Part shown: in pieces, positions 48,371 through 48,665 of the stretch
Layout of the letters: every line of letters starts with the position of its first letter
Numbering within the stretch: position 1 is the stretch's first letter
Assembly (NCBI GenBank): GCA_017456545.1
Contig: JAFTJE010000007.1
Location: 14,118-78,117, forward strand
DNA length: 64,000 nucleotides
Reading direction: 5' to 3'
DNA from: Clostridia bacterium
Lineage (GTDB): Bacteria; Bacillota; Clostridia; Oscillospirales; CAG-272
Program-made: the position numbers and the translations under genes
Notes under the pieces: generated by a model
The model's input: the letters and a program-made list of their open reading frames with translations, nothing else
Told to the model about the DNA's origin: nothing
Databases searched by the model: none

Positions 48371-48401
48371 CTCTTAACAGTGACGCCACACAGGTACAGT
48401 A

Positions 48402-48469
48402 AATTCTGCACTCTGAATTCTGAATTCTGCATTTACTTATTCTCTGTTGTCGTTACCGATTCATCCTGC
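48402..48469. repeat. 68-nt direct repeat, copy 1 (atpG-atpD spacer)
   Basis: AATTCTGCACTCTGAATTCTGAATTCTGCATTTACTTATTCTCTGTTGTCGTTACCGATTCATCCTGC. Confidence 0.85.
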
Positions 48470-48478
48470 ATTTACATC

Positions 48479-48546
48479 AATTCTGCACTCTGAATTCTGC
48501 ATTCTGCATTTATTTATTGTCTGTTGTCGTTGCCGATTCATCCTGC
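48479..48546. repeat. 68-nt direct repeat, copy 2 (4 mismatches to copy 1; period 77 nt)
   Basis: AATTCTGCACTCTGAATTCTGCATTCTGCATTTATTTATTGTCTGTTGTCGTTGCCGATTCATCCTGC. Confidence 0.85.
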
Positions 48547-48596
48547 CCTCGGTCAGGTCTCGGTTGGATTCATCGACGACTGCCACACCTTTCAAT

Positions 48597-48649
48597 CAAT
48601 TCTGCATTCTGCACTCTGAATTCTGCATTCACATAGATTCTGCATTTAC
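48597..48649. repeat. Partial or rearranged third copy of the TTCTGCA-rich repeat head
   Basis: CAATTCTGCATTCTGCACTCTGAATTCTGCATTCACATAGATTCTGCATTTAC. Confidence 0.7.
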
Positions 48650-48665
48650 TAAAAGGAGTAAATAT

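Follow-up and report, generated by a model that had tools for sequence, protein, structure and literature searches.

The atpG-atpD junction and the composition of its spacer

The stretch of DNA analysed here, a window of 64 kb, carries a complete F-type ATP synthase operon in which atpB, E, F, H, A, G, D and C were recognised by Pfam searches. It belongs to a 1.9-Mb MAG with 40.7% G+C and 43 contigs (hereafter G000), whose relatives are uncultured Clostridia from the guts of deer, sheep, goats and cattle. As the initial annotation had pointed out, the genes for the F1 gamma and beta subunits, atpG and atpD, are separated by 295 nt (48371-48665), whereas the remaining atp junctions measure +1, +15, -11, -4, +2 and -4 nt and thus stay between -11 and +15 nt. 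The start codon of atpD was placed at ATG 48666, downstream of the RBS listed in Table 1. The 295 nt were found to be identical in an independent assembly (ENA contig L127, 49 kb, 1 mismatch in 3804 nt), indicating that the spacer sequence is real and not an assembly artefact. A Logan contig (L128) is also identical over 139 nt of the spacer and ends within the second heptamer array. Directly upstream of atpB lies a 160-aa ORF (43328-43810, + strand) with no Pfam match, which may encode an AtpI/AtpZ-type small membrane protein.

The spacer is built from short repeated blocks (Table 1). Thirteen heptamers are present, twelve of them in three blocks of four with a phase of 7 nt and the last one on its own. 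Nine of them are exact TTCTGCA, starting at 48404, 48425, 48481, 48495, 48502, 48600, 48607, 48621 and 48638, and the others are TTCTGAA at 48418 and CTCTGAA at 48411, 48488 and 48614. TTCTGCA occurs 16 times on both strands of the whole window, against 10.2 expected, and 9 of these 16 fall in the 295-nt spacer, where ~0.05 would be expected. Two direct repeats of 68 nt (48402-48469 and 48479-48546) are 94% identical, with 4 differences, and have 9 nt between them, and the octamer GATTCATC is found at 48458, 48535 and 48567. All of these elements had been described in the initial annotation and were recovered at the positions given there, with the heptamer variant at 48418 reading TTCTGAA; what had been called a rearranged third head copy proved to be a degenerate third copy of the 68-nt repeat (48598-48665, 60% identity). 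Each block of the spacer reappears elsewhere in the genome in other combinations. For example, a short form consisting of M1 followed by ATTTACATCAA is also present at C8 and C10, and at other loci the inner boundary of the arm has the standard form AATCAA/ATTAA joined to an array, as at 48592-48627 of the spacer.

Table 1. Positions of the atp features, the spacer blocks and the related repeat copies. Positions without a contig name refer to the window.
Feature	Position	Strand	Remarks
atpG (F1 gamma)	47567-48370	+	Pfam PF00231, E 6.5e-75; stop TAA 48368-48370
Locus-specific left part, ACGCCACACA[G/A]GTACAGTAAAT	48371-48403	+	common to closest relative; alignment with L001/G013
Tandem pair of 68-nt units	48402-48546	+	period 77 nt, 94% identical
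Heptamer array H1	48404-48431	+	TTCTGCA CTCTGAA TTCTGAA TTCTGCA; 28 nt
H1 tail, TTTACTTA	48432-48439	+	
M1a	48441-48469	-	matches final ~29 nt of 115-nt structured core; antisense to atp
Linker after M1a, ATTTACATCAA	48470-48480		
Heptamer array H2	48481-48508	+	28 nt
H2 tail, TTTATTTA	48509-48516	+	
M1b	48518-48546	-	truncated structured core, first part
M2	48547-48591	-	truncated structured core, second part
TCAATCAA	48592-48599	+	
Heptamer array H3	48600-48627	+	
TTCACATAGA	48628-48637	+	
Single heptamer	48638-48644	+	
TTTACT, RBS and gap	48645-48665	+	RBS AAGGAG 48653-48658; 7-nt gap before start codon
atpD (F1 beta)	48666-50066	+	Pfam PF00006/PF02874; N-terminus MENNNTGYV aligns with relatives
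atpC	50063-50323	+	ORF upstream of operon terminator
Intrinsic terminator of atp operon	50322-50360	+	18-bp stem and T run, 3' of atpC
PF05635 cassette	G000 C5:249-701		joined to end of C20 (26174-26507)
PF05635 cassette	G047 C23 (L172:967-1419)		
Full core copy	G000 C1:85013-85159		beside tRNA-Ser(tga) at C1:85218-85305
Full core copies	G000 C33:45024-45146, C32:123-269		beside tmRNA
Full core copy	G000 C7:55317-55605		beside tRNA-Pro
Full core copy	G000 C36:23768-24109		

Regulatory signals were searched for in and around the spacer. An Rfam search of 47500-49500 assigned no family to the spacer (the best match, at E 0.53, was to a miRNA model), and the folds of the whole spacer and its modules, on both strands, were no better than those of shuffled sequences (z -0.8 and -1.0). 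The hairpin at 48523-48580, spanning M1b and M2 in the mRNA sense, has a predicted energy of -21.5 kcal/mol, with a z of -1.2 against shuffles. A promoter and terminator scan detected neither kind of signal in the spacer. Between 47500 and 50600, the operon terminator after atpC is the only intergenic terminator-like site on the + strand, the other such sites being two weak stems of 5-6 bp inside atpG and atpD; the earlier expectation of read-through thus stands, and the spacer is most likely co-transcribed passively within the atp mRNA. A reading frame is open from TTG 48447 into atpD. We tried it as an N-terminal extension of AtpD and, in agreement with the earlier view that the frame is coincidental, rejected it, since ATG 48666 has an RBS 7 nt ahead of it and relatives lack the region together with its open frame. 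The heptamer was also compared with the Spo0A box (TGNCGAA) and the core of the CodY box (TTCWGAA) and was assigned to neither, as there were too many mismatches and the arrays do not lie at promoters.

Two dispersed repeat families contribute to the spacer

When the spacer was searched against its own genome by BLAST, its blocks were recovered from ~16 loci, which are spread over 12 contigs. Five of them coincide with contig ends, and repeats made of heptamer arrays and the core described below break short-read assemblies. Arrays of at least three YTCTGMA heptamers number 30 in G000, 24 of which have exactly 4 units (28 nt). All are intergenic and occur on both strands; the genes on either side may be co-directional or convergent, and some arrays follow stop codons or flank terminators. 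The sequence CTGAATTCTGCA was counted 11 times on one strand of G000 and 9 times on the other, against 0.13 expected, and the order and number of H, the tails, M1, M2, M3 and other blocks differ from locus to locus. The BLASTN comparison with the genome and its relatives that had been suggested at the outset therefore returned a dispersed, multi-copy family, and not one confined to atp loci. Since copies of the repeat are scattered through the genome in both orientations and without operon specificity, the regulatory roles first considered for it (a binding platform, an mRNA element or an internal regulatory site specific to atp) are disfavoured. The other initial proposal, a small non-autonomous repeat element lodged in the operon, is favoured by the same modules at ~16 intergenic loci and by an extra ~205 nt that is missing in the closest relative.

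Outside G000, arrays are infrequent. Arrays of at least four units were detected in 4 of the 50 species of the genus (G000, G013, G021 and G047), and arrays of at least three units in 9 of the 301 genomes of the order; the reversed pattern, used as a control for these counts, gave 0. A literature search found no report of such heptamer strings. A Y1/RAYT transposase (PF01797) was considered as the mobiliser and rejected, because its distribution does not match that of the repeats: only a broken gene was found in G000, and none in the array-bearing G013 and G047. The Y1 (IS200/IS605-type) gene of G000, at C10:50055-50412, is interrupted by in-frame TAG and TGA stops. On the same contig, a PF03372 endonuclease/exonuclease/phosphatase-family gene (256 aa, C10:21414-22650) lies between heptamer-array loci of opposite orientation; it was considered to be probably an ordinary gene with a repeat insertion on either side.

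The 28-nt YTCTGMA arrays are the inverted terminal arms of a cassette of ~453 nt. In G000 and G047, a gene of 114 residues with a PF05635 domain ('23S rRNA intervening-sequence protein', E 4e-29) lies between inverted arrays, whose arms measure 21-28 nt (Table 1), and a third example was found in G337. In G000 and G047, the cassette separates the valS T-box leader from the valS start, a site at which G013 has no insert. Derivatives without the gene, in which inverted arms flank around 100-200 nt, were found at C10:69418-69688 and C33:18198-18519 of G000, as well as in G144, a member of another genus. In G144, the array pairs enclose around 180-200 nt and are accompanied by subterminal hairpins; they are MITE-like and often lie directly after a stop codon. 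At the atp locus, all three arrays have one orientation, there is no PF05635 ORF, and no inverted TGCAGAA was found within 3 kb of the arrays. With only same-orientation arms, no terminal stem can form there. Judged by their sequence, H1 to H3 at atp would be solo terminal arms of the PF05635 cassette, all in the same orientation.

The second family is a structured core of ~115 nt, and by sequence match the blocks carrying GATTCATC appear to be two antisense fragments of it. A covariance model of the core (R1) matches 48520-48633 of the spacer on the minus strand with 57.1 bits (E 2.3e-15), where only the junction and the 3' domain align and helices 1-2 are replaced by heptamers; the atp mRNA thus holds the antisense of a broken core copy. 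M1b and M2 together (48518-48591, minus strand) retain the junction AAGGUGUGGCAG and the 3' helix domain but not the 5' helices. The two blocks are 99% identical to positions 1-75 of a dispersed 127-nt unit, M1-M2-M3, which is a derivative of the core repeated in G000, G013 and G021. Within the window, the model also gave a weak match (56617-56700, minus strand, 14.5 bits, E 0.011) in a giant surface-protein ORF, which is probably due to chance.

The core is widespread in the family. Within the genus, BLAST detected it in 22 of the 50 species. The covariance model, which was built from copies beside tRNA-Ser, tRNA-Pro, tRNA-Leu, tRNA-Gln and tmRNA genes, detected it in 71 of the 201 genomes and 41 of the 97 genera of the family, with 1-14 copies per genome that are sometimes in tandem. 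Its structure has 21 pairs, 17 of which show compensatory changes. The proportion of paired cells in the core alignment is 97.7%; shuffling lowers it to 73.5% and sliding the partners to 32-56%. Double-change cells number 121 versus 29 in shuffles. Most copies precede a tRNA-Ser or tRNA-Pro gene by 30-85 nt and share its strand; they are located downstream of the tRNA promoter, within a duplicated 5' piece of the tRNA (nt 1-18, core, nt 20 to ~35). Other copies are 3' of tRNA-Ser, tRNA-Leu or tmRNA genes, with a duplicate of the gene's final 19 nt as their boundary. On the tRNA strand, G-U pairs exceed C-A mismatches by 9 to 4, which favours that strand as the folded one. An Rfam search with six related loci found no family for the core, and the ORFs neighbouring its copies are unrelated between loci, so that no protein partner was found beside them. 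Integrase att scars, tRNA-like genes and retro-insertions were each considered for the tRNA-flanked copies, and none of them fits all junctions.

History of the junction and competing explanations

The junction was compared among relatives. In the closest relative (G013, also L001; 95% AtpG identity), the spacer measures only 89 nt; its left part and the surroundings of the RBS are as in G000, and it contains a single array of three units, indicating that ~205 nt were gained recently at this atp locus. The equally close L002 has a spacer of 135 nt with no heptamers, G021 (also L003) one of 286 nt with long arrays and different modules, and L004, taken to be G047, one of 121 nt with one heptamer before the RBS. 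Overall, gamma-beta spacers measure 80-315 nt in 10 of the 11 closest relatives, each with its own different repeats, and their median across 69 more distant relatives is 25 nt, indicating that the junction is a permissive hot spot in the genus. A heptamer array directly 5' of the atpD RBS is common to all four array-bearing species (79-95% AtpG identity); its maintenance there could reflect selection besides shared descent, and the long spacer throughout the genus may mean that the junction as such has a role in spacing or processing.

Several further repeats were observed at this junction. The spacers of L002, L003, L005, L006, L009 and L010 contain species-specific short repeats, such as units of GTGATAT, ACTTCAC/GAAGTT and GCTAAATT, and a hairpin repeat, GGGGGACC...GGTGGATGAG, is present in L002 and L003 in opposite orientations. 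In L018 and L026, of another genus, TGCAGAA arrays of two or three units lie directly 3' of the atpG stop in the opposite orientation, which suggests an independent insertion of the same element family. Pattern scans of metagenomes found no junction alleles.

Taking these results together, we consider it probable that the spacer is a mosaic of two selfish repeat families, which settled at a permissive atp junction and is passively transcribed, with no atp-specific function implied. Its two components at this one junction would be solo arms of the PF05635 cassette and antisense fragments of the tRNA-associated 115-nt core. The ancestor of the four array-bearing species may have had one arm adjoining the atpD RBS, and the later growth by ~205 nt in the present species would have involved recombination with copies elsewhere in the genome and the tandem duplication of 77 nt between arrays. 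The end of M1b together with M2 is 98.6% identical over 71 nt to the copies at C4/C21, and this identity and the 77-nt period point to recent recombination with other copies and to slippage between arrays. The operon might tolerate the spacer because it brought in no terminator, left the atpD RBS intact and offers no inverted arm pair for a long stem of the RNase III type.

The best-surviving alternative, which we nevertheless regard as unlikely, is that the insertion was co-opted as an intercistronic mRNA element, whose hairpin or arrays form a processing or stability boundary uncoupling alpha/gamma from beta/epsilon. REP/BIME and Correia elements can act as mRNA processing or stability boundaries inside operons, and intercistronic repeat hairpins alter mRNA stability in other bacteria. 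The mRNA-sense hairpin of -21.5 kcal/mol, the conserved array position before the atpD RBS in four species and the long spacer throughout the genus are consistent with such a role, as is the sister cassette inside the valS transcription unit, which is thus transcribed with host genes. However, neither the hairpin (z -1.2) nor the whole spacer beats shuffles, the extra modules are missing in the closest relative, and the content of the spacer differs per species. Moreover, the same modules occur in non-operon contexts in both orientations, and at atp no inverted arm is available for an RNase III stem.

It is even less probable, and in our view very improbable, that the heptamer arrays are a DNA-binding platform through which a host regulator or nucleoid protein controls atp transcription. 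Iterated short sites are typical of protein binding, and the thirteen phased heptamers (nine TTCTGCA, one TTCTGAA and three CTCTGAA) have this form; being a cassette's terminal arms, the arrays would probably be bound by some protein. Nevertheless, any binder is more likely to be a mobility factor belonging to the element itself. No association of the arrays with promoters is seen, their places being instead after stop codons, beside terminators or between convergent genes, there is no promoter in the spacer, and 46 of the 50 congeners have the same atp operon and no arrays. Finally, we can hardly credit that the spacer is a product of collapsed or chimeric repeats in the MAG or that the frame from 48447 is a real N-terminal extension of AtpD: repeats of the heptamer-array family do break contigs and the frame is open from its TTG, but the independent 49-kb contig has the identical spacer, the atpD RBS is strong and all relatives start at MENN/MEK, the 77-nt period is not a multiple of 3, and the region is missing in the closest relative.

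For the atp operon itself, a mosaic of the two repeat families would be of little consequence, and insertions of this mosaic type in operons are nothing unusual. It shows that ~300 nt of repeat DNA can be accommodated between gamma and beta in an operon that is essential and tightly packed. The wider interest is in the two uncatalogued families that the spacer exposes, which are worth study in their own right. One is a PF05635 cassette with heptamer-array arms that is IVS-like yet found in mRNA contexts, and the other is a covariation-supported 115-nt element present in a third of the family's genomes. The fusion of both in four species is a natural experiment on how they spread.

Comparison with known repeats and intervening sequences

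BIMEs/REP of Enterobacteria and BOX of Streptococcus pneumoniae are short, modular mosaic repeats that are strictly extragenic and present in tens of copies. They often lie between the genes of one operon and are co-transcribed with them, with modules in variable order and number. The G000 repeats are similar in being multi-copy, confined to intergenic regions (16 loci, 30 arrays) and composed of variably combined modules. This likeness is drawn from general knowledge and not from sequence comparison, as there is no sequence relation between them, and the G000 repeats further differ in that their modules come from two separate families and their copies are far fewer (~16 loci). Unlike REP/REPIN, they have no intact RAYT (Y1 transposase) co-distributed with them. 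They resemble MITEs in the gene-less derivatives with inverted heptamer arms at other loci; on the other hand, the atp locus has no inverted pair or recognisable target-site duplication, and no transposase was found. MIRU-type intercistronic repeats have a unit that is a multiple of 3 and small ORFs coupled to the flanking genes, whereas the period at atp is 77 nt and its open frame is missing in relatives. The spacer also differs from known cis-regulatory RNAs (riboswitch, leader or sRNA) in having no Rfam match and a fold that does not rise above shuffles.

The atp copy can also be set beside the tRNA-lodged repeat of ~110-115 nt of gut Clostridia, whose covariance model the M1/M2 blocks match. 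It differs from that repeat in being truncated to the 3' domain and a second 29-nt fragment, in being antisense to its host transcript and flanked by heptamer arrays, and in lying in a protein-coding operon at a locus with no tRNA sequence.

The complete cassette has a close counterpart in the 23S rRNA IVS. In Coxiella burnetii, the IVS is 428-444 nt long and contains an S23p ORF, and the inverted repeats at its ends pair into a 28-bp stem that is cut by RNase III (PMC4990558). The complete cassette of ~453 nt, with its PF05635 gene and inverted arms, is like the 23S rRNA IVS with an S23p/PF05635 ORF of Coxiella burnetii and Leptospira. It differs from these in lying in mRNA leaders or intergenic spacers and in having arms of tandem heptamers, and the atp copy differs further, with three same-orientation arms and no ORF. 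The PF05635 cassette thus resembles the rRNA IVS closely, by which analogy its excision at the RNA level is putative. A bolder extension of the preferred reading, to which we give only a small chance, is that an IVS-type PF05635 cassette left the rRNA genes and now resides in mRNA leaders and spacers, that the atp junction is its decayed landing site, and that in this lineage its arm was fused with the 115-nt core as a new composite repeat. If this is true, a complete PF05635 cassette would be excised from the transcript at the terminal stem and the host mRNA thereby split, and the arm-core composite would give a handle on how the 115-nt core moves.
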